A DNA stretch of 64,000 nucleotides from Geobacter sp. UBA5735 (lineage in GTDB: Bacteria > Desulfobacterota > Desulfuromonadia > Geobacterales > Geobacteraceae), in NCBI GenBank assembly GCA_002419385.1, contig DIFZ01000024.1, forward strand, positions 749 through 64,748, read 5' to 3'. This document shows positions 10,815 through 60,196 of the stretch, one piece after another; position 1 is the first letter of the stretch; the number at the start of each line of letters is the position of its first letter. The position numbers were made by a program, and so were the translations under genes. A model generated the notes under the pieces. That model was not told the DNA's origin, searched no databases, and worked only from the letters and a program-made list of their open reading frames with translations.

Positions 10815-11004
10815 GGATTCGTTCTGCTTCCGCCATCCTCCCCAGAGCCAGGCTCTCCGGGACCAGGACGAGATCGCACGCCGGGCAGGCGGGCAGGTCC
10901 ACCTCGAAATTCCCTTTTTCGTATGAAAAGAATACCTTGGTGAGTTGAAGCTTTCCTCCGCAGGATGCACAGGTCCAGGCTTCGGCCTCTTGAGAGAAAT
11001 TCAT
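10801..11004 (-). CDS. small zinc-ribbon protein (CxxC...CxxC)
   Basis: 67 aa: MNFSQEAEAWTCASCGGKLQ...DLPACPACDLVLV. There is an ATGA overlap with the upstream oxidoreductase stop. From memory it matches a small 'redox protein' family named after DVU_1557. Confidence 0.6.
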   Translation of the reverse strand: MNFSQEAEAWTCASCGGKLQLTKVFFSYEKGNFEVDLPACPACDLVLVPESLALGRMAEAERILEDK

Positions 11005-13331
11005 TTCTTGATCCCCACGATTTTCATTCTGTGACAGTATGCATTCAGTACCGTGAAGCCATCGCCCTCAAGCTGATACTCCACCCAGAACGTCACGTTC
11101 GCCGGTTGCAGATATGCCAGGAAATTGCCGCTTTCACTGCACTGCATCCTCATGCCGCTCGATTCGGCATGCAAAATCACTTTCCTGATATCTTCCTCGA
11201 GGATCCTGCGCTCGTCGACGCGTTTGCGCACCTCGGGCGACATGACCAGCGCCAGCTTTTCGTAGTGCTCCAACTGAGGCTCCTTCCCCTCGCCAAGTTC
11301 AGCAAGGACAGATTCCTTGACGCGTACGCGGCCATCGCGGCGCTCCGACCAGGATATCCAGCCGCGGGCGGCGGGATCGGCGCCCGCGACAACGGGGAAA
11401 AGATGCTCGATGATATGGGATATGCGTTTCCCGACAAAGGCGAAGTTGTCCCTGCACATTGCGCAATACGCCAGGTAGTCGTTATCGCTCGCCGTTGTCC
11501 TCCTGGCAACCACGTCCCGTGCCAGGGTCGGGTTCGCGTTGTACATGAGCCCCCCGTAGCCGCAGCATTCCGGCTTCTCTCCGCTCAGTGGAAGCTCCTC
11601 GATGCCCATGCCGAGGGATTCGAGAATCCTGCGGATGCCCTGCTGCTCCTCCTGTTTCTGGCGGGACGCACAGGGATCGACAACCGATACGGTGACTTCC
11701 CCGGCCCCGGACACCCGTACCGAAACGGGCAACCCTGCATCAAGGATGGTACTCCAGAGAGAAACCGGTTCCGTTTCCGGCAGGTGTTCCTGGAACATAT
11801 TCAGGCAGGTAGTGCAGGCAGTGATGATCCGGGGTTTGCCCATCTTCTCCCAGCAACCCCGTATTTCGTTCAGCGCCTGACTGAACAGGTCTTCCCGTCC
11901 TGCCCAGAAAGCGGGGGCACCGCAGCAGTGGAGCAGGATGCCCACACCGCCGGTCAGCTTCTCCCTCAGGTAATGGTAGGAGGACAGGACCTCGCCAGGC
12001 GCGGATCCGCACAGCTGACAGCTGGGGAAATAGAGCCAGGCGCTCTCGCTTTTCCCAGGTTCACGGCGGCACAGGCTGAAAAGATCGCTGTTGCTGAATG
12101 CCATGTCGTCAAGGGCGAATTCGTGGAAGGAAGCCGGCATGATTTTCTGCTTCAGCAGGGTGCGGCGCGCCTCAAGACACATGTCGGCCATGCTGAAATC
12201 GTTCGGGCAGATGGTCTCGCACAGGCCGCAGGTGCTGCAGGAATTCGTGAAAACGTTGTACTGGTGGGCAGCACCCAGGAGGATACGTTCATTATTGAAG
12301 ATCTCCCGTGCGTATTTCTTCGGATACGCCTTGTAGCGTTCCAAAAAGAGGCATTTTTTCACGCACTCCCTGCATTCGCACTGAATGCAGCGCTTCGCCT
12401 CCATGTGCGCCTCTTCTTCCGAATAACCCTTTACGGAATCAGCAGGCACGACCCTCGGCAGCGGATCGATTCCTTCAAGGCTGGTGAAAAGCCGGGAACT
12501 GCATGGGCCCTCGTTTTCCCTGCCGAATTCCAAACCGACCTTCTGCATCAGGCGTTCTATGGAGAGGGCCGGCTTTCTTCCTTCCAATGTCTCCATGACC
12601 GGCGAAAAACCGCCTCGGAAGCGGGTACCGCCACCGGCGAACACCCCATCCCTGCCTGTGGCTCCCGTTGAAGGTGTAACAGCGATGAGGCCGTCGCCAT
12701 CCAGTTCGAGAGGAAGAGCACACCCATGGAATGAATCACGATCCAGAATCACGGCTGCGTATTCTTCACAAACCTGTTCAAAAAATGCCTTGTCAAGCCG
12801 GACTCCAAGGTGGATGTCCGCCATCATACTTTCAAGGACCAAGAGTTCCTCGGCGAGAATTTCCCGTGGCAGTATCCGCTCCGGAAGATCCCAAAGCGGC
12901 CCGCCAAGCCGCTCGCCCGATTCAAAAACGGAAACTACAAACCCTTTCTTGAGAAGATCCCAGGCGGCGGTTACACCGGCCAGACCCGCCCCGAGAACAG
13001 CGATGCGGTGGTTTTTGCGAGGCAGCAGCTGGACACGCTTTTTCCCGGCAAACTTCTCAACGCAGAGCCGTTCCAATGATCCGATGGCCAGGGGACCACC
13101 CACGGGGCCCCGCTTGCACCGCTCCTCGCAAGGATGGTCGCAGATGCGCCCCAGGATGCCGGGAAAAGGCATGGTCTTGTTCAGGACCTTATAGGCAGCG
13201 TCCCAGTCACCCTTGCGGATCTCCTTCAGAAAAAGCCTGGCATCGACATGGAGCGGACAGGCCGACGTACATTCGGGAGATTCCTCCTGGATGCATTTGT
13301 TTTCCCATGCAATGAGTTCGTTCTTTTCCAT
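11001..13331 (-). CDS. multidomain flavo/FeS oxidoreductase: GltD-like N-terminus, NAD(P)/FAD Rossmann, 2x[4Fe-4S], HdrD-type CCG domains
   Basis: Track ORF to 13409; I set the start at the ATG at 13331 (GAAGG upstream). Domains read in order:
- CPLHVDARLFLKEI...ICDHPCEERC, a glutamate-synthase small-subunit-like FeS domain.
- IAVLGAGLAGVTAAWDL, a dinucleotide-binding motif.
- CIQCECRECVKKC and CSTCGLCETICP, ferredoxin-type clusters.
- Two Cys-rich CCG-like regions (LHCCGAP, PECCGYGG). Confidence 0.75.
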   Translation of the reverse strand: MEKNELIAWENKCIQEESPECTSACPLHVDARLFLKEIRKGDWDAAYKVLNKTMPFPGILGRICDHPCEERCKRGPVGGPLAIGSLERLCVEKFAGKKRVQLLPRKNHRIAVLGAGLAGVTAAWDLLKKGFVVSVFESGERLGGPLWDLPERILPREILAEELLVLESMMADIHLGVRLDKAFFEQVCEEYAAVILDRDSFHGCALPLELDGDGLIAVTPSTGATGRDGVFAGGGTRFRGGFSPVMETLEGRKPALSIERLMQKVGLEFGRENEGPCSSRLFTSLEGIDPLPRVVPADSVKGYSEEEAHMEAKRCIQCECRECVKKCLFLERYKAYPKKYAREIFNNERILLGAAHQYNVFTNSCSTCGLCETICPNDFSMADMCLEARRTLLKQKIMPASFHEFALDDMAFSNSDLFSLCRREPGKSESAWLYFPSCQLCGSAPGEVLSSYHYLREKLTGGVGILLHCCGAPAFWAGREDLFSQALNEIRGCWEKMGKPRIITACTTCLNMFQEHLPETEPVSLWSTILDAGLPVSVRVSGAGEVTVSVVDPCASRQKQEEQQGIRRILESLGMGIEELPLSGEKPECCGYGGLMYNANPTLARDVVARRTTASDNDYLAYCAMCRDNFAFVGKRISHIIEHLFPVVAGADPAARGWISWSERRDGRVRVKESVLAELGEGKEPQLEHYEKLALVMSPEVRKRVDERRILEEDIRKVILHAESSGMRMQCSESGNFLAYLQPANVTFWVEYQLEGDGFTVLNAYCHRMKIVGIKK

Positions 13332-13380
13332 CGGGACCTTCTTTCGTCGGGAATCATGGAGAATGACAACAGAAAACGAT

Positions 13381-13407
13381 GGAGAGCCGGTGATGCGGTG
13401 ACTCTCC
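13381..13407 (-). promoter_or_regulatory. 5'-proximal stem-loop of the accessory-operon mRNA
   Basis: The minus-strand RNA GGAGAGUC-ACCGCAUCACC-GGCUCUCC forms an 8-bp stem including one G.U pair. That pair would be a C/A mismatch on the other strand. It is followed by AUCGUUUUCUGUUGU and lies between the ModE box and the start codon. Confidence 0.4.
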
Positions 13408-13435
13408 ATCGTTATAACATAAAATACATTACGAT
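13408..13435 (-). promoter_or_regulatory. ModE-type operator (box 1)
   Basis: The minus strand reads ATCGTAATGTA-TTTTAT-GTTATAACGAT. This is an 11-6-11 palindrome of the ATCGnTATATA-N6-TATATAnCGAT type. It sits about 75 nt upstream of the oxidoreductase start. Confidence 0.7.
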
Positions 13436-13499: not shown

Positions 13500-16304
13500 C
13501 TATTTTTTCGGTGGCGCGGAGTTTACATCCTGGCATACATAACCCTGGGCCAGAGCGTCGGACACGTCGAAAGCCTTCTTCGGCGACTTGAGCGCCGCGA
13601 GGATCTTCTCGGGGTATGCCGGCAGGTGACGGATGCGTGCGCCGCATGCGTTGTCGATGGCGTTGATGACGGCGCAGTGAGGAGCGGACAGCGGAAGTTC
13701 GCCGACGCCGCCGGCGCCGAAGGCGCCCAGTTCACGAGGCTTGGTCACATAGATGATTTCGAGATCGTCGGTGATGTCCTTGCAGAACGGGAAGCCCGCG
13801 CCGATCATGTTGGAGTGCGCCTTGATCATCTCGAAGTCTTCGGTAAGGGCCAGTCCGATACCCTGGGCCAAACCGCCGTAGATCTGGCCGTCAACGACCA
13901 GTTGGTTGGTGATGGTGCCGACGTCGGCCACATGGGTCATCTTGTAGCAATGAGCCTTGCCGGTGGTAATGTCGACTTCGACTTCCGCCAGGAACAGACC
14001 GTACATGTAAATACAGAACGGTTCGCCCTTGCCGGTCTCGACGTCGCACGGCGTGCACGGCGTGGTCCATTTGCCGTATACCTGGGTTTCGATTCCTTCC
14101 TTCACCATTTCGTCATAGGTGCGATAGGTGCCGTCAGCTTTCCTCATGGCCGCAAGCAGGTTCTCGCAGGAAACCCTGATGGCGTTGCCGGTGACGACGT
14201 TGTTGCGGCTGCCGCCGGACGGGCCGCTGTTCGGGGTCAGACTGGTGTCGTTCAGGCAGAGGTGGATCTGGGACGGTTTCAGCCCGAGGGGCTTGAGGGT
14301 TTCATGGGCGAATGCAAGGGTGCCCATATCGGAACCCTGGCCGTGATCCTGCCAGCTGTTGCCCATCATCACTTCGTTGTTGGGCAGGAGTTTAGCCCAG
14401 CTTTCGGATGTGTCGGGGCCGTCGAGGCCGCAACCGTAGATGCCGAGGGAAACGCCGACGCCGCACTTCACGGTGTCGGTGCTTCTCAGTTTTGCGTTTG
14501 CAACGGCTCGCTCGTATTTCGGACGGAGCGCTTCGAACTGCTCAGGGAATACGAACACTTCCGGAGTCTGCTGAGTCGGGGTGGTTGCGCCGGGGCGGTA
14601 GCAGTTGATTTCGCGGAGTTCGAACGGGTCTTTCCCCATTTTCTTGGCCAGCTCGTCGATAAGGGACTCGGAGGCGAAGAAGGCCTGCGGAGAACCGTAT
14701 GCGCGGAAAGGGGCGCCCCAGCAGTGGTTGGTGCAGACTGTCCGGCCTTCACCGCGCATGTTCGGGATGTCGTAGCCTGCGAAGGCGTACTGTAAACCAC
14801 GAACGGTGAGGAGGTCGCCGAACTCGGAGTAGGGACCGTGGTCGACGGACCAGTCGGTTTCCGTGGCGAGGAATTTGCCGTCTTTGTCAGCGGCAATCCT
14901 GGCCTTGAACCAGAACGGAGAGCGCTTGCCGGTGTAGAACTGCAGTTGAGCCCAAGAGCAGGAAAGGTGAACCGGTTTGCCGCCGACCGCCATGGTGGCA
15001 ACCGCGAGCAGGGCTTCGTTGGAAGGACAGAATTTGTAACCGAAGGAGCTGCCGCAGGGGTTCTGTACGATGACCAGGTTTTCCAGTTCGACGCCGACAC
15101 CCGGGGCGATCATTGCCTGGTGCAATTGCAGACAAATGGACTTGGAATGGACGACCACCTTGCCTTCATCATTGATGTACGCGAATCCGACGTCCGGCTC
15201 GACGGGCATCTGGGGTTGACGGCCGAGATAGTACTCGCCTTCCACAACATAGGCGGCTTTTTCCATGATCGGCTTGGTGTCCTCACCCTTGACCAGATTC
15301 TGGGTGAAGTAGACGTTCGGGGTGCCGGGGTGAATTTCAATTGCGTCCGGAGCCATGGCTGCCGGCGCGTTCATGTAGTGCGGCAGCACTTCCAGGTCGA
15401 ACTTAACCAGCTTCGCAGCGGCATCGGCATGCGCTTTTGTGTCGGCAATTACGAGAGCAATGGCGTCCCCATACTGGAAGACCTTCTGGTCGTTGAGAAT
15501 CGGGCGGTCCCATCCGTCACCCTTATTGGTGGGGAAGGTAATCAGACCGGTGATGCGGTTCTTGCCCTTGACGTCCTTGTGGGTTACAACCTTGACCACG
15601 CCCGGCGCCTTCTCTGCTGCGGAGGTGTCGATCCCCTTGATGTTTGCATGGGCCACATCGGCGTACGCGATGGCGGCATGGAGGGTGTCTTCGGGGAGCT
15701 GGTCGGCCTTATCGTTGCCGAAATCCCAGAGTCCGCAGACCTTGGCAACGGATGTGGGACGCGGATACCGTGTTCCGTAAACCCTGCCGTCCTCAGGGGC
15801 CTTGTAATCAAATACGGATGCGGACATTTCGCCGCGCAGAACCTTGGCGGCGTCCATCACTGCGTCAACGATGGAGATGTAACCGGTGCAGCGGCAGGCA
15901 TTCTTGTACTGGTGGAACCAGTCACGCACTTCTTCACGGGTCGGGTTCGGGTTGGAATCGAGGAGCGCCTTGGCGGAGACTATGAAACCAGGGGTACAGA
16001 AACCGCACTGAAGTGCGCCGTGGTGGATGAAAGCCTTCTGGAGGGGGTGGAGGTTAATCGGTGTACCGATCCCCTCGGTGGTGGTAATCGTCGACCAGTT
16101 TTCGACCCGCTTCATCTTCATGGTGCAGGTGCGAACGAGCTTGCCGTTCAGGATGACATTGCAGGCGCCGCATGTGCCGGTCGCGCATCCGACCTTGACA
16201 CTGGTCAGGTGTAACTGTTTCCGCAGAACATCGGACAGGAGAGCTTCCTGGTCAACGATCAGCGTCCTCTCGACACCATTTACTTTGAGAACCTTTTTAA
16301 TCAT
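13500..16304 (-). CDS. mop: aldehyde oxidoreductase, xanthine-oxidase family, MOP type (2x[2Fe-2S] plus molybdopterin domains in one chain)
   Basis: Start set at MIKKVLKVNG (AAAGGAGGAGG upstream). The N-terminus KVNGVERTLIVDQEALLSDVLRKQLHLTSVKVGCATGTCGACNVILNGKLVRTCTMKMKRV is near-colinear with Desulfovibrio gigas MOP as I remember it. The second 2Fe-2S motif is CGFCTPGF, followed by about 750 aa of molybdopterin-binding domains. Confidence 0.9.
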   Translation of the reverse strand: MIKKVLKVNGVERTLIVDQEALLSDVLRKQLHLTSVKVGCATGTCGACNVILNGKLVRTCTMKMKRVENWSTITTTEGIGTPINLHPLQKAFIHHGALQCGFCTPGFIVSAKALLDSNPNPTREEVRDWFHQYKNACRCTGYISIVDAVMDAAKVLRGEMSASVFDYKAPEDGRVYGTRYPRPTSVAKVCGLWDFGNDKADQLPEDTLHAAIAYADVAHANIKGIDTSAAEKAPGVVKVVTHKDVKGKNRITGLITFPTNKGDGWDRPILNDQKVFQYGDAIALVIADTKAHADAAAKLVKFDLEVLPHYMNAPAAMAPDAIEIHPGTPNVYFTQNLVKGEDTKPIMEKAAYVVEGEYYLGRQPQMPVEPDVGFAYINDEGKVVVHSKSICLQLHQAMIAPGVGVELENLVIVQNPCGSSFGYKFCPSNEALLAVATMAVGGKPVHLSCSWAQLQFYTGKRSPFWFKARIAADKDGKFLATETDWSVDHGPYSEFGDLLTVRGLQYAFAGYDIPNMRGEGRTVCTNHCWGAPFRAYGSPQAFFASESLIDELAKKMGKDPFELREINCYRPGATTPTQQTPEVFVFPEQFEALRPKYERAVANAKLRSTDTVKCGVGVSLGIYGCGLDGPDTSESWAKLLPNNEVMMGNSWQDHGQGSDMGTLAFAHETLKPLGLKPSQIHLCLNDTSLTPNSGPSGGSRNNVVTGNAIRVSCENLLAAMRKADGTYRTYDEMVKEGIETQVYGKWTTPCTPCDVETGKGEPFCIYMYGLFLAEVEVDITTGKAHCYKMTHVADVGTITNQLVVDGQIYGGLAQGIGLALTEDFEMIKAHSNMIGAGFPFCKDITDDLEIIYVTKPRELGAFGAGGVGELPLSAPHCAVINAIDNACGARIRHLPAYPEKILAALKSPKKAFDVSDALAQGYVCQDVNSAPPKK

Positions 16305-16511
16305 ACTTCCTCCTCCTTTGGGTTTTATGTAACCGGGCAATGCCCGGCTACGAGGGATGAAACAAACCCTTCATCGCTCCTGTGGAGAGGATGGCGCTGA
16401 AGGACGGCGAACCAACAAGAATGCCGATAACAGTTCATTCAGACCCACTACCCTGCCTGTGGATGAGACAGGGGTGCTAAAAAAAAGACATGCCGAAAGT
16501 TGTCCATACCT

Positions 16512-16557
16512 GAAAAAAGGCCCCTCACTCCGCCAGTGGAGGAGACAGGAGTGAGGG
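16512..16557 (-). terminator. intrinsic terminator after the MoeA-like gene
   Basis: Minus-strand RNA: CCCUCACUCC-(16 nt)-GGAGUGAGGG followed by GCCUUUUUUC. Confidence 0.65.
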
Positions 16558-16581
16558 AAGGTGGAATGACAAACTTTCTTT

Positions 16582-17607
16582 CTACCCCTTGCCGAAACTG
16601 CAGGCGGGGTAGCGGCACGCTTCACAGTCGAGACAGTAGCCGCCATGACCCAGTGCGACTATGTCTGCGCGACTTACGCGCTCACCTGCAAGTATTCTCG
16701 GTACGATCAGTTCAACTATCGTTGCCTTGTGATACATGGCGCATCCGGGAACGCCGATGATCGGCACATCGCCGATGTAGGCAAGCATGAACATGGACCC
16801 CGGAAAAGTGGGCGCCCCGTACGTGACGACGTCAGCTCCACTAGCCTTGATTGAAGCGGGGGTGCGGTCATCAGGGTCAACCGACATCCCGCCGCTTGCA
16901 ACGATCATTTCTGCACCTTCTGCCAGGAGCTGCCGGATGGACGCAACAATCACCGACGGGTCATCGGGGGTGAATATCTGCCGCATGACGGTGCTGCCTA
17001 CCTCGGCAAACTTGGCACGCAGGACCGGGCCGAACCGGTCTTCGATCCTGCCGTGGAACACTTCGTTCCCGGTCGTGACGAGGCCGACTTTCAGGGAACG
17101 GAACGGTTTTATTTTGACAACAGGCCCGTATTCCCCGCAGATCCTTTCAACGGCGAGGATCCGGTCGTTGTCGGTATAAAGGGGTATGATGCGTGTACCT
17201 GCGACCGGCATGTCAGCTGAGACCTGCTGATCGGAATGAAGGGTTGCAAGGACGATCTGCTCTATGGAATTAATTTCCTGGAGGGCGGCTGAGTTGACTT
17301 TGATGAGACCATTACGGGCAGAGACCAGCTTGACCTTTCCTTCGGACGGCTCAGAAAAAACGATGCCCTCCCCCGCAGCCGCCCGCGCTATCCGGAGTGC
17401 GGCGTCATTTTCATGCACGAAACCTTCCTTGAGATCAAGGACATATATGTTGTCTTTGCCCAGCTTCAGCAGTTTCGGGACATCTTCTTCCTTTATGACG
17501 TGCCCCTTTTTGAACGCACGCCCCTTGAATTCTCCCGGGACGATGCGGGTTATGTCATGGGAAAGAACCCTGCCGACTGCTTCCTGGACGGGGATGGATT
17601 TCATCAT
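16582..17607 (-). CDS. MoeA-like molybdopterin-binding protein (MoeA N-domain plus MoCF_biosynth domain, Cys-rich tail, no MoeA_C)
   Basis: Start set at the ATGATG at 17607 (AGGAG upstream). It has IPVQEAVGRVLSHDI (MoeA-like) and LKVGLVTTGNEV...ASGGMSVDPDDRTP (MoCF domain). The C-terminal tail is GHGGYCLDCEACRYPACSFGKG. Confidence 0.7.
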   Translation of the reverse strand: MMKSIPVQEAVGRVLSHDITRIVPGEFKGRAFKKGHVIKEEDVPKLLKLGKDNIYVLDLKEGFVHENDAALRIARAAAGEGIVFSEPSEGKVKLVSARNGLIKVNSAALQEINSIEQIVLATLHSDQQVSADMPVAGTRIIPLYTDNDRILAVERICGEYGPVVKIKPFRSLKVGLVTTGNEVFHGRIEDRFGPVLRAKFAEVGSTVMRQIFTPDDPSVIVASIRQLLAEGAEMIVASGGMSVDPDDRTPASIKASGADVVTYGAPTFPGSMFMLAYIGDVPIIGVPGCAMYHKATIVELIVPRILAGERVSRADIVALGHGGYCLDCEACRYPACSFGKG

Positions 17608-17715
17608 CCTCGGATTTCTCCTTTTGATTTTAAGCTTTTTTCCGCGGTAGCGCGGCTCCAGCCGGCTGGTTTTCCCGCACAGTCTGCACAGAGGGAGACC
17701 GGTTTCTTCTCCAGA

Positions 17716-17761
17716 ATGAAAAACCCGCATCAATACTGAATTCATTCAGTATCAATGCGGG
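17716..17761 (-). terminator. intrinsic terminator/attenuator inside the MoeA-like leader
   Basis: Minus-strand RNA: CCCGCAUUGAUACUGAAU-GA-AUUCAGUAUUGAUGCGGG then UUUUUCAUUC. The arms are 18 nt and contain two G.U pairs. Those would be C/A mismatches on the plus strand, so the hairpin is strand-specific. It sits about 110 nt upstream of the start codon and about 150 nt downstream of the predicted promoter. Confidence 0.7.
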
Positions 17762-17802
17762 TTTCGTTAGGTCCGCACGGTGCGGAGGACGAAATCGGCG
17801 CT
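17757..17802 (-). promoter_or_regulatory. conserved structured leader motif, copy A
   Basis: Minus-strand RNA: AGCGCCGAUUUCGUCCUCCGCACCGUGCGGACCUAACGAAACCCGC. It has an outer helix UUUCGU/ACGAAA and an inner hairpin UCCGCA/UGCGGA. Its 3' CCCGC is the first part of the terminator stem. A second copy lies at 22185..22229. Confidence 0.6.
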
Positions 17803-17914
17803 TTGATCTATCCGGCTAGCTTCAACAGGTGTCGAGATGTTTCATCGGATCGCTTGTCGTGAGGTTCCCTGTTTCCGGTGAAGCATGGCATATCGGGTAC
17901 AACGCTGCAGAGGT

Positions 17915-17948
17915 ATCGTTATTTATCATGTTATATAACCATATGCAA
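17915..17948 (-). promoter_or_regulatory. ModE-type operator (box 2) overlapping a sigma-70-like promoter
   Basis: The plus strand reads ATCGTTATTTA-TCATGT-TATATAACCAT (17915..17942), with 2 mismatches to the ATCGnTATATA-N6-TATATAnCGAT pattern. On the minus strand, TTGCAT (17948..17943) is followed by a 17-nt spacer and then TAAATA (17925..17920). The box therefore covers the spacer and the -10. Confidence 0.75.
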
Positions 17949-18202
17949 GAAATTTTTTCCTCATCGAAACGTGGCCGAAAAAAGATATTTTTCTTGCAAA
18001 GCGAAAAAAAAGCTGTCTCCCGGTCAAAAACCTCGCCGACGAATACATGAAGCTCGTGCACCATATCCCCGCTGCCTGTATTCCGTCATTCCGACGACAA
18101 CCCGAATCCTGTAATTTCAATTATATGCGGAAGTACCTCACCCCGATTTCCAACGGGTGAAGATTTTTTCGAACCGACACGGTGAGTAAGTAAACTTTTT
18201 TC

Positions 18203-18236
18203 TTGCATTTCGTTATTTAATTTGTTACATAACGAG
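18203..18236 (+). promoter_or_regulatory. ModE-type operator (box 3) overlapping the promoter of the modE-like gene
   Basis: TTGCAT (18203..18208) is immediately followed by TTCGTTATTTA-ATTTGT-TACATAACGAG (18209..18236). TACATA sits 17 nt after the -35. The geometry is the same as for box 2. Confidence 0.7.
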
Positions 18237-18346
18237 TGGATATTCTCCCATATCCATTCTTTCCTTGGCCCCATGTTGCCCAGCATGGGGCCTCCCTTTA
18301 ACACCTTTCAGAAACTTCGGCAGTATACGGAAAAAGGATTCCTCAC

Positions 18347-18703
18347 ATGGACAACAAAAGAATAGACATGTCCGGCAAAATCTACCTCCACCTGAAAGAC
18401 TGCAAACCCCTTGATATGGAAAGCATAGCGCTTCTAGAAAAGGTCGACATCCACGGGTCGATAGCCCGCACTGCGAGAGAGATCGGCATCAGCTATCCGA
18501 AGGTATGGCATACTATCGACACGTTGAACAGACTGTCATCCAAGCCCCTGGTGGTAAAACTGGCCGGTGGCAAAGGCGGCGGCGGCGGCACATTCCTCAC
18601 TGAAGAGGGCAGAAAGTTCATCAAACGTTTCAAGTCAATACAGCGGACCCACGAAAGGTTCATCCGGCAGCTCGAAGACAAATGGCACGGGAGCCGCAGG
18701 TAA
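18347..18703 (+). CDS. modE: ModE N-terminal-domain-only winged-helix regulator (no molybdate-binding Mop domains)
   Basis: 118 aa. The block LLEKVDIHGSIARTAREIGISYPKVWHTIDTLNRLSSKPLVVKLAGGKGGGGGTFLTEEGRKFI is the ModE/LysR-type HTH with the characteristic Gly-rich loop. The ORF ends where the di-Mop domain of full-length ModE would begin. Confidence 0.8.
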   Translation: MDNKRIDMSGKIYLHLKDCKPLDMESIALLEKVDIHGSIARTAREIGISYPKVWHTIDTLNRLSSKPLVVKLAGGKGGGGGTFLTEEGRKFIKRFKSIQRTHERFIRQLEDKWHGSRR

Positions 18704-18834
18704 GGGCCTCGCGGGAGGAAAACTCCGGCTGCCCTTCACCCTAGCTCCTCTGCCTGCTCCATGCAGCGGGAGTACACAGCCCGTCCACCAATCGGCAATA
18801 CCCGCGGACAGGCCGTTAATCACTGGTCCCCAGC

Positions 18835-19242
18835 TCAATCCAGGTCATCATGGGAGTGATCGCACCCGCCGCTGCCATCCCCGCAACGGCCTGCCTCTGC
18901 ACTGCATTGCTTTTTCACTTCCGGCAGCTCCTGCCTGCCGAACAGTTCCGCATTTTCCCTGACGCTTTCCGATTGCGCCTCGTAGACCATGAATCCCATC
19001 ATGTTCAACAGTTCCAGGAGGTTGTCGCCTATTCCGCCGACGACCACTCCGTCCAGTTCGCTGCCGGCCAGGGCTTTGAACGGATTGCACCCAGCCTCAG
19101 GGGCGGACCTGTCTTGGTTGGGGACGGCCGATGTTGCTTCGGTTTCGGTATCAACCAACAAAAAGTGGGGCGCTGAAGCGAAGTGGCCGTAAATACGGCT
19201 TTCCATCCCCTCATCCTCGATTACGGGAAAACATACTTTCAT
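18835..19242 (-). CDS. NifB/NifX-type (dinitrogenase FeMo-cofactor-binding domain) protein, orange-protein-like, with Cys/His-rich tail
   Basis: Start set at MKVCFPV. The blocks HFASAPHFLLVD...DGVVVGGIGDNLLELLNMMGFMVYEA fit the Nitro_FeMo-Co fold. The tail is CSAEAGRCGDGSGGCDHSHDD. Confidence 0.7.
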   Translation of the reverse strand: MKVCFPVIEDEGMESRIYGHFASAPHFLLVDTETEATSAVPNQDRSAPEAGCNPFKALAGSELDGVVVGGIGDNLLELLNMMGFMVYEAQSESVRENAELFGRQELPEVKKQCSAEAGRCGDGSGGCDHSHDDLD

Positions 19243-19330
19243 ATCCAAAAACCTCCAATGAGATAACGGGCAGTCCATGCCCGGACAAAAACTGAATGCC
19301 TGCCGTCAAGCCGGCTGACACCGCCAGTAC

Positions 19331-20680
19331 CTACGGAGCTTTCATTTCTTCCATGACCAATGCCTTGCCCACCAGGTCCATCACGCCGCCGCACACCGTA
19401 GCCCCCATGCCGTAATGCTTCAGGACAAGGGGGAGTTGTGCTTTGCAGCTGGCACAGGGCGCAGCGACATAATCCAGCGGCTGAAGCGCTTGTATCTGCC
19501 GAGCTTTCATTTTTCCGAACTGCATGCGCAAATCGTGCATTTCGTCCATGAGCAGACCGGAACCGCCCCCGCAGCAGAAATTGCGCTCCCGGTTGGGGGA
19601 CATTTCGACGAATTCTTCTACGCAGGCCTTGACGATCTGCCTCGGCGAATCCAAAAGTCCTGTCCCTCTGCCATAGTTGCAGGAGTCGTGGAGCGTTGCC
19701 CTCAGGGGCAGCCGGGTGAGATTCAGCTCCGGGAGCCGTTTCGCCACGTAATCCAGGACATGTTCCAGATGAAAAGGAACGGGGCCGTTCGCACCTTCGG
19801 CATACATCCGGGCTGCACGCCAGCCATGGCCGCACTCTCCCAGAATCACATGCCTGGCACCGACCGCCGCCGCAGCCGTCCGCATACGTCGGTCATGCTT
19901 TTTAAGAATCTCCACATCGAAGTGAAGGCCGTAGTTCGCAGCCTCAAGCATGACCGAAGAGAGAGTCCAGTCGACTCCCAGTATGTGGAAGACCTTGGCT
20001 GCCCCCAGCAGTGTCTCCACATTGGTAAAGAGTTCTGATGATGACGGCAGGAACAGGACTTCGGTGTGCGGTTTGTCAACCGGAATCCTGATGTCGATGC
20101 CGGTTTCATCGCGCAATTCGTCTTCCAGAAAGGAGCAGCTGTCGATGATGGCCGGCTTGAGAATTCCGCTGTTGTTTCCCGTCTGGAGTTCATTGCGGCC
20201 GATAGTGACCAGAAAGCTCGGTGCAATCCCCATCCGGAGCAGGATGTTGCGCCCGGCAAGGACGATTTCTCCCGTGTCGATACCGCAGGGGCAATAAACG
20301 GCACAGCGGCGGCACACGGTGCACTGGTAAAAGTAGCTCGCCCACGTGTCGAGAGTATCGGCATCGAACTCCCGTGCGCCGGCAAAACCGCGGAACAGTC
20401 TGCCGGACCAGGTGAAATACCTCGCGAATATGCTGCGCAGCAGACCGGCCCGTGCTGCGGGCAGGTTATTGAAATCGTCCGTCCCCAGGTAACTGTGGCA
20501 GGCTTTGGCACACGCCCCGCACCTGGTGCAGGTTTCCAGCATGACCGAAAACGACCTGGCAAATTTCCTGAACTCATCCAGCAGGTCGAGAGTCCGTTCC
20601 TTCATGGAAGACTCGTCGACCTGTTCGATGCCGAGATGGTGCAAATCCTCCTTTTTCGCCGGATGATAGGGCAGGTTCAC
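19331..20680 (-). CDS. dsrK: DsrK/HmeD-like FeS protein with CCG domains
   Basis: 449 aa. It has CTRCGACAKACH...LLRSIF and CTVCRRCAVYCPCGID (2x[4Fe-4S]), plus C-terminal CCG motifs (HDSCNYGRG, NFCCGGGSG). There is a GTGA overlap with the DsrM-like stop. Confidence 0.75.
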   Translation of the reverse strand: MNLPYHPAKKEDLHHLGIEQVDESSMKERTLDLLDEFRKFARSFSVMLETCTRCGACAKACHSYLGTDDFNNLPAARAGLLRSIFARYFTWSGRLFRGFAGAREFDADTLDTWASYFYQCTVCRRCAVYCPCGIDTGEIVLAGRNILLRMGIAPSFLVTIGRNELQTGNNSGILKPAIIDSCSFLEDELRDETGIDIRIPVDKPHTEVLFLPSSSELFTNVETLLGAAKVFHILGVDWTLSSVMLEAANYGLHFDVEILKKHDRRMRTAAAAVGARHVILGECGHGWRAARMYAEGANGPVPFHLEHVLDYVAKRLPELNLTRLPLRATLHDSCNYGRGTGLLDSPRQIVKACVEEFVEMSPNRERNFCCGGGSGLLMDEMHDLRMQFGKMKARQIQALQPLDYVAAPCASCKAQLPLVLKHYGMGATVCGGVMDLVGKALVMEEMKAP

Positions 20681-21498
20681 GTCTGCCCTCCCCTATCCAC
20701 CGGTCCCTGTGCAGCTGCGTGAAGGGCAGCATGAACCCTGCGTGCCGCAAAGCGCGACCGGGGAGCGGCGCCTTCCGCGGTCGGACTGGCCGGGGGAGCT
20801 TCCATGAGCATCGCCCGGTTGACGATGGAACCGGCAGCGTGGAGCAGGCGTGAAAAGGGGAAATACAGCAACAGGATGTTCGCCAGCAGAAAATGGCTGA
20901 CGAACATCGGGCTGTCGGGCAGCGCCGCGGAACGGAACATGATGAGATCGCTCATGTAAGCCCTGACGGCGGGGAGATCCGCTTGAAAACCGGGCAGGTA
21001 CATCATGATTCCCGAGACGGCAAGCGCCATGAGCAGCAGCAGGTTGAAAAAATCTTCCGCCACGGAAAGCTTCCTGACCTCCGGATTGACGATTCTGCCG
21101 ATGAGAAGCGCGTAAAGCGAGAGCACCATCACGCCACCCGACAGCCCTCCCAGCAATTTTGACATGAATCGGCTCGTTCCAGGGCTCACGCCGACAAGGG
21201 TAAACTGGTCACGAAGACAGTATATCCCGACCACATGGCCTGCGATAACCAGCCCCAGAGACAGGTGGAACAGCCAGACCCGAAGCCAGAGTGCCTTGTC
21301 TTCGCGGAAAATGCGGCCGCAGAAAAAAAACTCCCCTGCGAGAGCCGCGACCTTTCCCATCGTGTTCCGTGGTGCGGGAAAAAGCGTGATGTGGAACGGG
21401 ACAGGCTTTTTCAACCATCCCGCGATCTTCATAACCGTTCCGGAGATGAAGACAGCACAAGCCGTATAGGGAAGAAGTGCTCCCAGCAGAAACTCCAT
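20677..21498 (-). CDS. dsrM: DsrM/NarI-like membrane cytochrome b
   Basis: 273 aa, about 5 TM helices. The start resembles nitrate reductase gamma subunit family proteins (LLPYTACAVFISGTVMKIAGWLKKPVPF). Conserved His residues lie in the helices. Confidence 0.7.
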   Translation of the reverse strand: MEFLLGALLPYTACAVFISGTVMKIAGWLKKPVPFHITLFPAPRNTMGKVAALAGEFFFCGRIFREDKALWLRVWLFHLSLGLVIAGHVVGIYCLRDQFTLVGVSPGTSRFMSKLLGGLSGGVMVLSLYALLIGRIVNPEVRKLSVAEDFFNLLLLMALAVSGIMMYLPGFQADLPAVRAYMSDLIMFRSAALPDSPMFVSHFLLANILLLYFPFSRLLHAAGSIVNRAMLMEAPPASPTAEGAAPRSRFAARRVHAALHAAAQGPVDRGGQT

Positions 21499-21520
21499 GC
21501 ATCATCCTTGCTGCATCGTG

Positions 21521-21838
21521 TTACAGGCAACCTGCCGGCTTGGGAAGGCCTGCCACTTTGCAGGCTCCTTTCGCGGGACCGGGTGGGAACAGATCCTCGA
21601 TCTCCTTCAAGGCCAGCCCGGTATCCTTGCAGAGCTTCCGGATCATCGGAGCAATGCGGAACCGCTCATAATAATCACGCAGGTAGTAGATCACCCGCCA
21701 GTGATTGTCCGTAAACTCTGCAATGTTCACCAGTGCCCCGTATGCCCTGGCCACATCCTCGCTCCATTCTTCCGGATGCACGAGAAAACCATCTTCGTTG
21801 AGTTCAACAAGTTTTCCGTTAACCTTGAGATACGCCAT
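21521..21838 (-). CDS. dsrC: DsrC-type sulfur carrier (TusE/DsrC/DsvC family) with both C-terminal cysteines
   Basis: 105 aa. It ends ...GPAKGACKVAGLPKPAGCL, which has the penultimate Cys plus a second Cys 10 residues upstream. This is nearly identical to the Desulfovibrio DsrC tail as I remember it. Confidence 0.85.
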   Translation of the reverse strand: MAYLKVNGKLVELNEDGFLVHPEEWSEDVARAYGALVNIAEFTDNHWRVIYYLRDYYERFRIAPMIRKLCKDTGLALKEIEDLFPPGPAKGACKVAGLPKPAGCL

Positions 21839-21947
21839 GACATTACAGCCCTGAATTCACGTTGTCCCAGTGAACTAGTTTATGGTAAAAGTCTTGCGCG
21901 GTGTTCCCGTCGCGGGGCAGGAGGCTGCCAACCGGTTGCGTCCAGGT

Positions 21948-22118
21948 TCAGCTGCCGTATATATTGCTCAGGGTATAGGTAAGACACTTGGTGCATTGCC
22001 ATTTGTATTGGCCCAAATGATCATGGCAGAACCATGCACCACATTTCGAACATTTCTTGTTCAGGTAGTACTCGGTATCTATCTCTTTGTTGCATGTGGC
22101 ACATTTTTCAATCGACAT
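21948..22118 (-). CDS. small Cys-rich zinc-ribbon protein (hypothetical)
   Basis: This is the internal ATG of the track ORF 21948..22256. Sequence: MSIEKCATCNKEIDTEYYLNKKCSKCGAWFCHDHLGQYKWQCTKCL. AAGGG lies 7 nt upstream. It sits right after the leader motif and terminator (copy B). Confidence 0.4.
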   Translation of the reverse strand: MSIEKCATCNKEIDTEYYLNKKCSKCGAWFCHDHLGQYKWQCTKCLTYTLSNIYGS

Positions 22119-22140
22119 GGGTATCCCTTTCAGATTCCGG

Positions 22141-22188
22141 AAAAATAAACGCACCCCTGAAATGCCGGTATAAGCGGCTCTGGTGCGG
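22141..22188 (-). terminator. terminator-like hairpin plus U-run after leader motif copy B
   Basis: Minus-strand RNA: CGCACC-(26 nt with an inner GCCG/CGGC stem)-GGUGCG followed by UUUAUUUUUCC. It is weaker than copy A. Confidence 0.45.
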
Positions 22189-22229
22189 GTTTCGTTGGGT
22201 CTGCTGAAGCAGAGGACGAAATGTGCGCT
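22185..22229 (-). promoter_or_regulatory. conserved structured leader motif, copy B
   Basis: Minus-strand RNA: AGCGCACAUUUCGUCCUCUGCUUCAGCAGACCCAACGAAACCCGC. The outer helix and flanks are the same as in copy A. The inner hairpin is UCUGC/GCAGA, with a compensatory C:G to U:A change relative to copy A. Confidence 0.6.
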
Positions 22230-22302
22230 CTGGCTGTTGTGTGGAATGGCCGACAAAAGGATCGGAGTGCACGGAGATTGCCTTGCAGCGATGGAACATA
22301 AC

Positions 22303-22476
22303 CTACTTGAATGTTTCGGTTTTCTCTATATAGCTGACCCCTCCGTCCTTGAAGGAAATGACCACTTTCCCGGAAAAATTGTCCGGAATTATGTTCAACT
22401 CCGAAAGAGTGTCGGAAACTTTCCTCTTCCAGACCGAATTCGGCACCCTTATGTCTGTGACGACTTGCCTTCGCAT
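22303..22476 (-). CDS. YezD/DUF2292-like small protein
   Basis: This is the internal ATG of the track ORF 22303..22545. The C-terminus GKVVISFKDGGVSYIEKTETFK matches the remembered DUF2292 pattern (G-x-V-x-I-x-x-x-D-G-x-V-x-x-I-E-K-T-E). Confidence 0.5.
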   Translation of the reverse strand: MRRQVVTDIRVPNSVWKRKVSDTLSELNIIPDNFSGKVVISFKDGGVSYIEKTETFK

Positions 22477-22719
22477 GAAATTTTTCGATGCCCCCCCGAA
22501 AGCCCATGGCCATGGAAATTCCGTACCAGCACCGGCATTTTCCATGCGAAGCCTCCGCTTCCCGTTTCCTCTTGGAATGTACTCAGTGAATGAATTGCTG
22601 CGTGGTGTTCAGGCATTGCGGCTTAGTGGCAAACAGAGCCAGGCCTGAGGTTTTCAATCGACAACGCAGTTCAACCAGTCAGAAAAAAAAGCTGTTTCCG
22701 GATGGAAATCACCTATCGT

Positions 22720-22761
22720 TTGCACCATTCGTTATATATATTATTAAACAACGGAGTGCAA
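22720..22761. promoter_or_regulatory. ModE-type operator (box 4) bracketed by inverted -35-like hexamers
   Basis: TTGCAC (22720..22725), then ca, then TTCGTTATATA-TATTAT-TAAACAACGGA (22728..22755), then GTGCAA (22756..22761). The left half-site is near perfect and the right half has 4 mismatches. It lies in the divergent region between the yezD-like gene and the MOT1-type transporter gene. Confidence 0.6.
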
Positions 22762-22958
22762 GAGAATTTTTCTGCCCGGCACCCATGGTCATCCCGCAAA
22801 TCCCGTAAACATTCTTGACGATGCGCGACCGAACGGGTAACCTTGCACATCGGCGTGATGGTCACTTACCGCGGACGGCCATGCTCCCGCGAACCTCCAG
22901 AAAAGATTCAAACGAGCAAATCGCCCCGGCCGACATTACAACCTGGATATTGAAATAC

Positions 22959-24119
22959 ATGAGAATCGGTTCATTCGAATTCAACCTTCGCGAGCTTTCC
23001 GGATCTCTCGGCGACATGGGCACCTTCGTGCCGCTGGCAGTCGGGTACATCGCGGTCTGTGGCATGGAGCCCGCAGGGATCCTGCTGATGATGGGCCTGG
23101 CGAATATTGCCACCGGCCTGTACTACCGGCTGCCAATTCCCATCGAACCGATGAAAGTCATCGCCGCCGCGGCAATTGCGCAGCAGTGGCCGCCGTCGAT
23201 GATCCTGGCATCAGGATTCTCCATGGGCATCATCTGGATGCTCATTGCCGCTACAGGGGCGGCCTCCCGTGTAGCGAACCTGACTCCTTCTGCGGTTGTT
23301 CGCGGCATCCAGGTAGCGTTGGGAATTCTTCTGGCAATTGAGGCCGGAAAACTGCTTTCCACCTCCTGGCTTCTGGGCGGACTGGGCCTTGCGATCGGCA
23401 TCGGCTTTCGGAAATGCCGCCATGCGCCGGCGGCCGTTGTGCTGGTTCTGCTGGGAGTCGCGATCATGATGATCAACGGCACGTTCAGCCAGGTCATGAG
23501 CCCGGAGATTACCCTTCCTCACCTTGCCACCTTCAGCCTCGGGGAAGTCTGGCAATCCCTGGTCCAGGCGGGATTTGCCCAGATACCGCTCACCGTGACC
23601 AATGCCACCATCGCCACATCGTGTCTCATTTCCTCCTACTGGCCCGAACGACAGGTCAGTCCGCAGCGGCTTTCCGTCAGCCAGGGGATTATGAACCTGT
23701 TTTCTCCTTTTTTCGGCGGCATGCCCATGTGCCACGGTGCGGGCGGCTTGGCCGGCCAGTACTATTTCGGAGCACGGACCGGCGGCACGAACATAATCGA
23801 AGGAATTATCGAAATCATTCTCGGACTCTTCTTCGCCGCTTCGGTGGCTGGGCTGTTTGCTTCTTTTCCCCAGGCCGTGACCGGAACCATGCTGATGCTC
23901 GTGGGATTTGAGCTCATAAAGTTTGCCCGTGACGTGCGTGGCTCGCGGGACACACTTGCCATGGCAATGACCGTTGCGGTATCCCTGGCGTCAAATATGG
24001 CATTCGGCTTCCTTGCAGGCTTGCTGGTAAACCGAATGCTGCCGTATATGAACACTGAAAAACAGCATCCGAAGAAACCCCGTCAATCTCCCCAAAGATC
24101 ATCCGGGAACGGAGAGTGA
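22959..24119 (+). CDS. MOT1-family (sulfate/molybdate transporter-like) membrane protein
   Basis: Start set at MRIGSFEFNLRELSGSLGDMGTFVPL (the track start at 22815 adds a non-membrane R-rich leader). It is polytopic. The GD(M/L)GT and ...MPMCHGAGGLAGQYYFGARTGG blocks are typical of the putative molybdate transporter family as I remember it. Confidence 0.7.
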   Translation: MRIGSFEFNLRELSGSLGDMGTFVPLAVGYIAVCGMEPAGILLMMGLANIATGLYYRLPIPIEPMKVIAAAAIAQQWPPSMILASGFSMGIIWMLIAATGAASRVANLTPSAVVRGIQVALGILLAIEAGKLLSTSWLLGGLGLAIGIGFRKCRHAPAAVVLVLLGVAIMMINGTFSQVMSPEITLPHLATFSLGEVWQSLVQAGFAQIPLTVTNATIATSCLISSYWPERQVSPQRLSVSQGIMNLFSPFFGGMPMCHGAGGLAGQYYFGARTGGTNIIEGIIEIILGLFFAASVAGLFASFPQAVTGTMLMLVGFELIKFARDVRGSRDTLAMAMTVAVSLASNMAFGFLAGLLVNRMLPYMNTEKQHPKKPRQSPQRSSGNGE

Positions 24120-60119: not shown

Positions 60120-60196
60120 TGGTGGCGGTGCAGGGACTTGAACCCCGGACACTGCGGATATGAGCCGCATGCTCTAACCGGCTGAGCTACACCGCC
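60120..60196 (-). tRNA. tRNA with CAT anticodon (elongator Met by default; lysidine-modified Ile2 not excluded)
   Basis: The reverse complement GGCGGTGTAGCTCAGCCGGTTAGAGCATGCGGCTCATATCCGCAGTGTCCGGGGTTCAAGTCCCTGCACCGCCACCA folds as a cloverleaf. It has a 7-bp acceptor stem, a GCTC/GAGC D-stem, a TGCGG/CCGCA anticodon stem, a CTCATAT loop, a TTCAAGT T-loop and an encoded CCA. It is not initiator-like: G1-C72 is paired and the anticodon stem has no GGG/CCC. Confidence 0.9.

Follow-up and report, generated by a model that had tools for sequence, protein, structure and literature searches.

The leader of a molybdenum-enzyme operon in Geobacter sp. UBA5735 carries an RNA that was catalogued in 2010 and has been a regulatory orphan since. 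In a 64,000-nucleotide (nt) stretch of this genome (contig DIFZ01000024.1, positions 749 to 64,748; here called the window, whose internal numbering is used throughout), we found that a 46-nt element at 17757-17802 on the minus strand, upstream of a gene for a MoCF_biosynth-domain ('MoeA-like') protein, belongs to the Moco-II family (RF01713). The element is a real, cis-regulatory RNA whose invariant 3' tail also serves as the 5' arm of an intrinsic terminator, and its most likely role is to terminate transcription conditionally, according to molybdenum-cofactor (Moco) status. Around it, the window holds a complete control unit, comprising a promoter with a ModE-type operator, the motif, its terminator, the enzyme operon, a second motif copy, a modE-like gene and a molybdate transporter gene. 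An enlarged Moco-II family yields, in addition, a testable switching model in which a helix of three base pairs (bp) competes with the terminator, a defined set of target genes and a candidate, if weak, protein partner.

Searched against Rfam 15, the whole window yielded three matches above gathering score, namely a tRNA gene and two copies of RF01713. Both copies span model positions 1-46 of 46 and exceed the gathering score of 35 bits, copy 1 (17757-17802, minus strand) with 53.6 bits (E = 8.8e-07 for the whole window) and copy 2 (22185-22229, minus strand) with 53.4 bits. Our own covariance model of the family, R1, scored them at 64.1 bits (E = 3e-12) and 64.6 bits, respectively; for copy 1, a chance match is thereby excluded by a wide margin. 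When filters were switched off, no third Moco-II copy was found in the window, the next score being 11.5 bits. Copy 1 consists of a 5' tail (AGCGCCGA), an outer helix P1 (UUUCGU/ACGAAA), an internal loop (CC / CCUA), an inner helix P2 (UCCGCA/UGCGGA) with the loop CCG, and a 3' tail (CCCGC), and its flanks follow the Moco-II pattern, 5' (U)GCGCYNA and 3' AAACCCGC.

The Moco-II family goes back to Weinberg et al. (2010, Genome Biol 11:R31; PMC2864571), who described it from eight sequences, of which four came from Pelobacter carbinolicus, two from P. propionicus, one from Geobacter uraniireducens and one, diverged, from Thiobacillus denitrificans. Like the published motif, the element studied here has conserved tails, an internal loop, a variable inner helix, an adjacent terminator, a MoeA/MoCF_biosynth gene downstream and a source among Geobacter/Pelobacter relatives. 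Since the adjacent terminator had already been recorded in 2010 as 'a possible expression platform', together with the link to a MoeA-domain gene (PMC2864571, Additional file 1), the layout of this leader is a rediscovery of a catalogued but functionally orphan RNA; in the literature collection that we searched, no paper other than Weinberg et al. 2010 names Moco-II. What the present analysis adds is a family of more than 100 distinct copies in place of eight, a main target consisting of a MOP-type oxidoreductase and maturation genes, a promoter with a ModE-type operator or a small upstream gene at many copies, and a proposed 3-bp closing helix.

A preliminary description of this leader had placed a helix-in-helix motif at exactly the coordinates of copy 1, and the RF01713 match coincides with it from end to end. 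The same description had proposed a 'Moco/Tuco-type or new' sensing element; the anatomy it gave stands, but neither label does, as the family is known and the model of the classical Moco/Tuco riboswitch (RF01055) gave no match in 16500-23500 at E <= 1 and none in the whole window at its gathering score. The classical Moco RNA (RF01055, PMC2408646) resembles Moco-II in its neighbourhood of cofactor biosynthesis and enzyme genes, in having some terminators and in occurring as tandem copies. In other respects the two differ: the classical RNA is a multi-stem structure of ~130-140 nt, as against a 46-nt hairpin here, with no similarity in sequence or structure, and in E. coli it is an OFF switch on translation, whereas the layout in this leader suggests antitermination of the ON type.

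The motif runs directly into an intrinsic terminator (17719-17764, minus strand), found by a terminator scan and by folding, which reads AAACCCGCAUUGAUACUGAA-UGAA-UUCAGUAUUGAUGCGGGUUU followed by UU and has ACCCGC in common with the motif. Its hairpin (17764-17721), with ~20 pairs and a 4-nt loop before the U-run, is the top terminator-like site in an 11-kb scan and has an energy of -32 kcal/mol. Because one U.G and one G.U pair in the stem would become A.C mismatches on the opposite strand, the terminator is a signal in the sense-strand RNA. There is no same-strand gene directly upstream of the leader for it to terminate, the neighbour at 18347-18703 lying on the plus strand. The upper part of the stem covaries among orthologues (ACUGA/UCAGU versus ACCGG/UCGGU), and ACCCGC, the motif's invariant 3' tail, forms its 5' arm. 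Copy 2 is built similarly, with a terminator (22141-22187, minus strand; RNAfold, -18.8 kcal/mol) that reads CGCACC...GGUGCG then UUUAUUUUU and uses the motif's last CGC. Across the family, a terminator starts at ACCCGC in 46 of the 48 assessable copies that were collected without a downstream constraint.

Upstream of the motif, a -35-like hexamer TTGCAT (17943-17948, minus strand), read directly from the sequence and conserved, is separated by 17 nt on the minus strand from a -10-like hexamer TAAATA (17920-17925, minus strand), which lies within the right half of a palindrome and was identified by sequence and orthologue alignment. The start codon of the MoCF_biosynth gene follows ~310 nt downstream of the -10 element; by its reading frame, the ATG begins at 17607, not 17606. 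An alignment of ten orthologous leaders revealed three conserved islands, namely the promoter with its operator, the motif with its terminator, and the start of the coding region, separated by two variable spacers. In the upstream one (17803-17912, minus strand; ~110 nt) neither sequence nor length is conserved, and the downstream one (17608-17718, minus strand), which has a Shine-Dalgarno-like GGAG at 17621-17618, is poorly conserved and contained no promoter-like site in the consensus scan. The leader thus matches the preliminary description closely: a promoter TTGCAT-17 nt-TAAATA overlapped by a ModE box and placed about 300 nt from the MoeA-like start, a hairpin with a U-run whose G.U pairs exist only in the minus-strand RNA, the absence of an upstream gene to terminate, and the continuity of the terminator's 5' arm with the motif all hold. 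The conserved islands recur in related loci.

Two scans enlarged the family. The pattern of the genome scan fixed P1 and the 3' tail and left P2, the 5' tail and the downstream region free, whereas that of the metagenome scan left P1 and P2 free and required a terminator; each yielded at least 64 loci. R1 was then built from 101 distinct sequences and found extra copies in the collected loci, so that both scans and R1 together gave at least 134 Moco-II copies in at least 120 distinct contexts, the 120 to which all context counts below refer. The sources are metagenome-assembled genomes (MAGs) and contigs that carry the names Geobacter, Pelobacter/Syntrophotalea, Desulfuromonas or 'delta proteobacterium'. 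Loci L032 and L041 ('Pedobacter sp.') and L129 (a 'Syntrophus sp.' bin) carry clusters of the Pelobacter/Geobacter type with motifs, and their labels may be naming or binning errors. Two loci contain tandem pairs 74 nt apart, with a terminator after the second copy only (L003, 3293-3412, plus strand; L041, 4260-4379, minus strand); both lie upstream of genes for a methyltransferase, a TonB-dependent receptor and a periplasmic binding protein, and the first copy has variant loop nucleotides, UC for CC. Several matches were rejected. L062 (30.7 bits), a candidate outside Desulfuromonadota, lacks P2, is the terminator of a protease gene and counts as a chance match. Eight loci (L001, L011, L021, L025, L039, L047, L057 and L064) from MAGs of Thermodesulfobacteriota and Dadabacteria share one conserved, probably coding sequence, TTTCGCCCAKATAATTCGGGCACGAGACAAAGCGAAACCCGC, which has neither the motif flanks nor a terminator and bears no relation to Moco-II, and the remaining matches to the genome pattern were random.

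In the 101 homologues P2 is 98% paired and shows compensatory changes at four of its five pairs, and the fifth changes from U-A to C-G in hits that were found by the model alone. Its covariation score of 0.219 compares with 0.140 in shuffles, none of 500 shuffles reached the observed value, and controls with slid partners paired to only 22-48%. The loop that P2 closes varies from 3 to 9 nt. Around this variable inner helix stand ~25 nearly invariant nucleotides in the tails and internal loops, including the 5' flank, which is conserved though it was free in the genome pattern. P1 behaves differently: its UCG/CGA core is invariant and one pair is U-A or U.G, and even where its pattern was left free, in the metagenome scan, it remained nearly invariant, with just U.G wobbles and one mixed position (14:36). 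An invariant core means that covariation neither supports nor contradicts P1; U.G wobbles on the sense strand show that the Moco-II element acts as RNA. Of the helices, P2 is thus supported by covariation, while P1 and the closing helix described next hardly vary.

When motifs were folded in isolation, 100 of 101 adopted P2, a 6-bp P1 and a 3-bp helix, P0, as their minimum-energy fold. P0 pairs G2-C46, C3-G45 and G4-C44 (GCG/CGC), is absent from the Rfam structure and would correspond in copy 1 to G17801-C17757, C17800-G17758 and G17799-C17759. Its CGC is also needed by the terminator, so that in copy 1 the terminator state (predicted at -38.4 kcal/mol) and the P0-enforced state (-25.6 kcal/mol) would be mutually exclusive. 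Rare variants lend P0 weak support, in that a C46 to U change in two copies and a C3 to U change in one would keep the helix through a wobble. Since upstream contexts differ completely between copies, a conserved antiterminator outside the motif is not possible, and since P0 competes with the terminator, the modelled folds suggest termination by default with effector-dependent read-through, that is, ON logic.

A mechanism can be proposed on this basis. Transcription would start at the promoter whose spacer and -10 element lie under the ModE-type operator, and ~110 nt on, the polymerase would transcribe the 46-nt motif. Before the 3' arm of the terminator exists, the motif could fold as a closed three-helix hairpin with P0 outermost, in which the pairing of the 5' GCG with the 3' CGC would hold part of the invariant tail ACCCGC. 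If nothing stabilised this closed form, the tail would pair with GCGGGU ~30 nt downstream, the terminator would form and a transcript of ~195 nt would be released. An effector that locked the closed form would prevent the terminator from nucleating, and the operon would be read through. We tentatively favour, at a little under an even chance, direct binding of the RNA to a small-molecule effector from the molybdenum-cofactor pathway, which would make Moco-II an ON-type riboswitch. Moco itself is unstable (PMC2864571). The ~25 invariant nucleotides and the tandem copies are riboswitch-like traits and would speak for this reading; as tandem and multiple copies are found among classical Moco RNAs (PMC2408646) no less than in protein-dependent systems, copy number does not discriminate between types of effector.

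The promoter itself may respond to molybdenum. A ModE-type operator, GGTTATATA-acatga-TAAATAACG (17917-17940), has two mismatches to CGTTATATA-N6-TATATAACG and overlaps both the promoter spacer and the -10 element. Three sites in the window match this palindrome at two mismatches each, compared with none in 100 shuffles. The other two, from the same palindrome scan, are a box at 18211-18234, with CTTGCA on the plus strand, that precedes the modE-like gene by 113 nt, and a box at 22730-22753 between an operon that begins with a small gene, ORF80, and a divergent gene for a MOT1-type molybdate transporter (22815-24119, plus strand; domain search). CTTGCA stands 3-5 nt upstream of all three boxes; more widely, cTTGCa is found 3-5 nt upstream of the palindrome in ~30 related loci and is invariant in ten of ten orthologous leaders. 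The promoter call rests on this conservation, because TTGCAT/TAAATA scored under the cut-off of a consensus promoter scan over 11 kb and was not listed. A ModE-type operator lies upstream of the motif in 30 of the 120 contexts, with a distance of 125-185 nt from the promoter/operator module to the motif, and 18 more contexts have a half-site.

The window sites match the core of the ModE consensus of E. coli and G. sulfurreducens, ATCGNTATATA-N6-TATATANCGAT (PMC545781), a ModE-domain gene is adjacent and a molybdate transporter gene is among the targets, so that at the sequence level ModE-type control of the leader promoter is well supported. The candidate regulator of the three boxes is a 118-amino-acid (aa) protein (18347-18703, plus strand) that consists of a ModE DNA-binding domain only (TIGR00637 ModE_repress, E = 8.7e-24, 83.5 bits against a cut-off of 98.5; PF00126 HTH_1), the domain search having detected no Mop/TOBE domain in it. 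By their positions, the boxes would mark a small local regulon made up of the oxidoreductase operon, the modE-like gene, which is probably autoregulated, and the ORF80 operon with the divergent MOT1-type gene. In that the operator covers the spacer and the -10 element, its position suggests that molybdate-ModE represses the leader promoter. Known ModE systems differ from this one in two ways: here the regulator is local and lacks Mop domains, and the operator is placed between the -35 and -10 hexamers of a molybdenum-enzyme operon, where repression by molybdate is unexpected. A combination of ModE control with a Moco RNA is known from E. coli moaA (PMC2408646), whose two-layer logic of ModE plus RNA recurs in this leader; the comparison with moaA, drawn in the preliminary description, is thus apt.

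With a molybdenum-responsive input already given by the operator at many copies, a thermodynamically dominant terminator and no effector known for Moco-II, the element might be taken for a constitutive partial terminator, or an element of RNA stability or processing, that keeps short and long transcripts in a fixed ratio and leaves all regulation to ModE. We consider this improbable, given that a plain terminator needs no ~25 invariant nucleotides upstream of it, let alone their retention in more than 100 copies and at paralogous sites of one genome, and that these nucleotides persist while the P2 loop, the spacers and most of the terminator stem vary. Moreover, 38 copies lie within operons after ORF80 and others behind unrelated promoters, which argues that the motif is selected independently of the ModE box.

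The genes downstream of Moco-II point to its physiological role. The first gene encodes a MoCF_biosynth protein in 39 of the 120 contexts, a 56-aa Cys-rich protein in 19, the oxidoreductase directly in 12, an ORF80-family protein in six and a DsrC-like protein in three; 29 are unclassified and 12 have too little downstream sequence. Other first genes encode class-V aminotransferases (cysteine-desulfurase-like), XdhC, NuoE/NuoF-like diaphorase subunits, methyltransferases of the TylF and other types, and a TonB-dependent receptor accompanied by a periplasmic binding protein, and a MoaE-like gene occurs further down one cluster. The targets are non-homologous and all tied to the molybdenum cofactor, with the MOP-type oxidoreductase and cofactor-maturation genes at their centre. 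That unrelated downstream genes have this theme in common argues for a cis-regulatory role, an argument made by the original authors that here gains a broader base. The 56-aa gene usually precedes DsrC-like, NarI/DsrM-like, DsrK-like and NifX-like genes, and the 'nitrate reductase' of the 2010 description is probably the NarI-family DsrM-like gene.

In the window, copy 1 precedes the gene for the 341-aa MoCF_biosynth-domain protein, the first regulated gene (16582-17607, minus strand; PF00994, E = 1.1e-21), for which every NCBIfam match fell under its cut-off. Next come a molybdopterin-dependent aldehyde oxidoreductase of the xanthine-oxidase family, MOP type (13500-16340, minus strand), assigned by its Pfam domains and by the equivalog NF045668 (1567.8 bits against a cut-off of 1100), and an Fe-S/flavin protein with GltD-like and CCG domains (11001-13409, minus strand; domain search), which follows the oxidoreductase gene in an order conserved in related loci. 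In Pelobacter carbinolicus, tungsten aldehyde oxidoreductases are predicted to be under classical Moco-type riboswitches (PMC3543383, PMC2408646). If the proposed function is correct, Moco-II on the molybdenum-type aldehyde oxidoreductase would let these bacteria choose their isoenzyme by the metal cofactor available.

The same gene contexts bear on a further possibility, that the ~195-nt terminated transcript is itself the ModE-controlled product, a trans-acting small RNA with its single-stranded tails as seed. The promoter, the conserved core and the strong terminator would make a complete small transcription unit, and pairing with ribosome-binding sites is conceivable for conserved C-rich and U-rich segments, UCCUC among them. 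Yet the genes immediately downstream of every copy examined are functionally related and share its strand, many copies sit between cistrons and lack their own promoter, and the 5' part of the putative small RNA is not conserved, which together make such a product very improbable.

Returning to the proposal that the RNA senses a cofactor-pathway metabolite directly, we note a number of points that weigh against it. The discoverers of Moco-II doubted that it is a riboswitch, on account of its simple fold (PMC2864571). Although P2 is supported, P1 and P0 are not proven by covariation in the alignment: the fourth pair of P1 is unpaired in 17 of 101 sequences, and a mutual-information scan over all column pairs recovered P2 alone, with no further pairing or pseudoknot. 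Several or many of the 'invariant' columns were fixed by the search patterns, so that their invariance is partly built in. P0 comprises just 3 bp and competes with a terminator that is ~13 kcal/mol more stable; its changes are one-sided, and one copy has A2 opposite C46. The suggested repression by molybdate-ModE is hard to reconcile with a simple logic of 'cofactor present, switch on'. Finally, up to three motif copies per cluster and a frequent small upstream gene are at least as typical of antitermination that depends on a protein.

In such a scheme, a trans-acting RNA-binding antiterminator would recognise the hairpin and its tails and block the terminator, as BglG, LicT and SacY do at RAT sites and as HutP or ANTAR proteins do at theirs. 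Well-known examples are the bgl operon of E. coli, where two regulated terminators enclose the antiterminator gene, hutP, which precedes its target terminator, and the eut loci with their multiple ANTAR sites. Moco-II resembles these systems in that the 3' flank of its short conserved hairpin doubles as the 5' arm of a terminator, in the presence of several sites per cluster and in the small upstream gene. Its simple hairpin, in which invariant nucleotides make up a very large fraction, would suit recognition by a sequence-specific protein. It differs in that ANTAR sites are two hexaloop hairpins and HutP sites UAG repeats, whereas Moco-II is a single hairpin with a variable loop. Tandem hexaloop hairpins were absent, and no gene of the CAT/PRD, ANTAR or HutP type, and hence no CAT-PRD regulator, was found among the scanned genes that neighbour the motifs.

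A weak candidate for such a protein is the product of the small upstream gene. ORF80 (22303-22476, minus strand; probably 57 aa) ends 73 nt upstream of copy 2 and belongs to a family that comprises 62 homologous clusters of the protein collection, none of them named or assigned a Pfam domain. Of the 120 contexts, 38 have an ORF80-family gene whose stop codon falls 2-140 nt ahead of the motif (L012, L014, L030-L032, L036, L081, L103 and others), Pelobacter-like genomes having two subtypes per cluster. Six clusters are ordered motif, ORF80, motif, MoCF_biosynth, oxidoreductase, an arrangement that mirrors the bgl operon, and some clusters hold three motif copies. The gene is real and conserved: its product combines RRQVVTDIRVPNSVWKK...GKVVISFKDGGVSYIEKTETFK with a basic N-terminus (RRQVVTDIRVPNSVWKRK), and AlphaFold2 models it as beta-alpha-beta-beta with a predicted local distance difference test score (pLDDT) of 84. 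It has, however, no recognisable RNA-binding domain or fold, as searches of Pfam (E <= 10) and NCBIfam (E <= 1) gave nothing relevant and a Foldseek comparison of the model with the PDB gave no match better than E = 0.45. A guess by eye from the C-terminal motif, DUF2292/YezD, was dropped on the same grounds.

Nor is the link between gene and motif obligatory. About 80 contexts lack an upstream ORF80, and strict linkage is refuted by two family members: P0051, a paralogue that is not followed by a motif although its genome has three motif copies, and P0059 (L133, 4001-4177; loci L133-L136), which stands behind a ModE-type box directly upstream of cydAB, the genes for cytochrome bd oxidase, with no motif. 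The promoter of this cydAB-linked homologue reads TTGCGC-gc-CGTTATATT-N5-TATACAACG; a molybdenum-type operator linked to cydAB is unexpected in its own right. On account of these two cases, ORF80 is tied more closely to the ModE regulon than to the RNA. A protein effector of some kind is a serious but rather unlikely alternative to direct metabolite binding, and the narrower idea that ORF80 itself is the antiterminator, which binds the Moco-II hairpin in an unrecognised protein-RNA switch reporting molybdenum or cofactor status, is improbable.

Copy 2 heads a series of genes on the minus strand (18835-22118) that recurs after the motif in related loci. Its first member encodes the 56-aa Cys-rich protein (21948-22118), with four Cys pairs that make it zinc-ribbon-like and weak, sub-threshold matches to models of RNA polymerase subunit P and Nop10. 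Domain searches identified the genes that follow as DsrC-like (21521-21838), NarI/DsrM-like (20677-21498), a DsrK-like CCG protein (19331-20680) and NifX-like (18835-19278). The closest named relative is Geobacter sp. GAC1 (L048), with 92-94% protein identity. Besides the two Moco-II copies, the sole Rfam match in the window is the tRNA gene, at 60123-60196 on the minus strand (RF00005, 66.4 bits).

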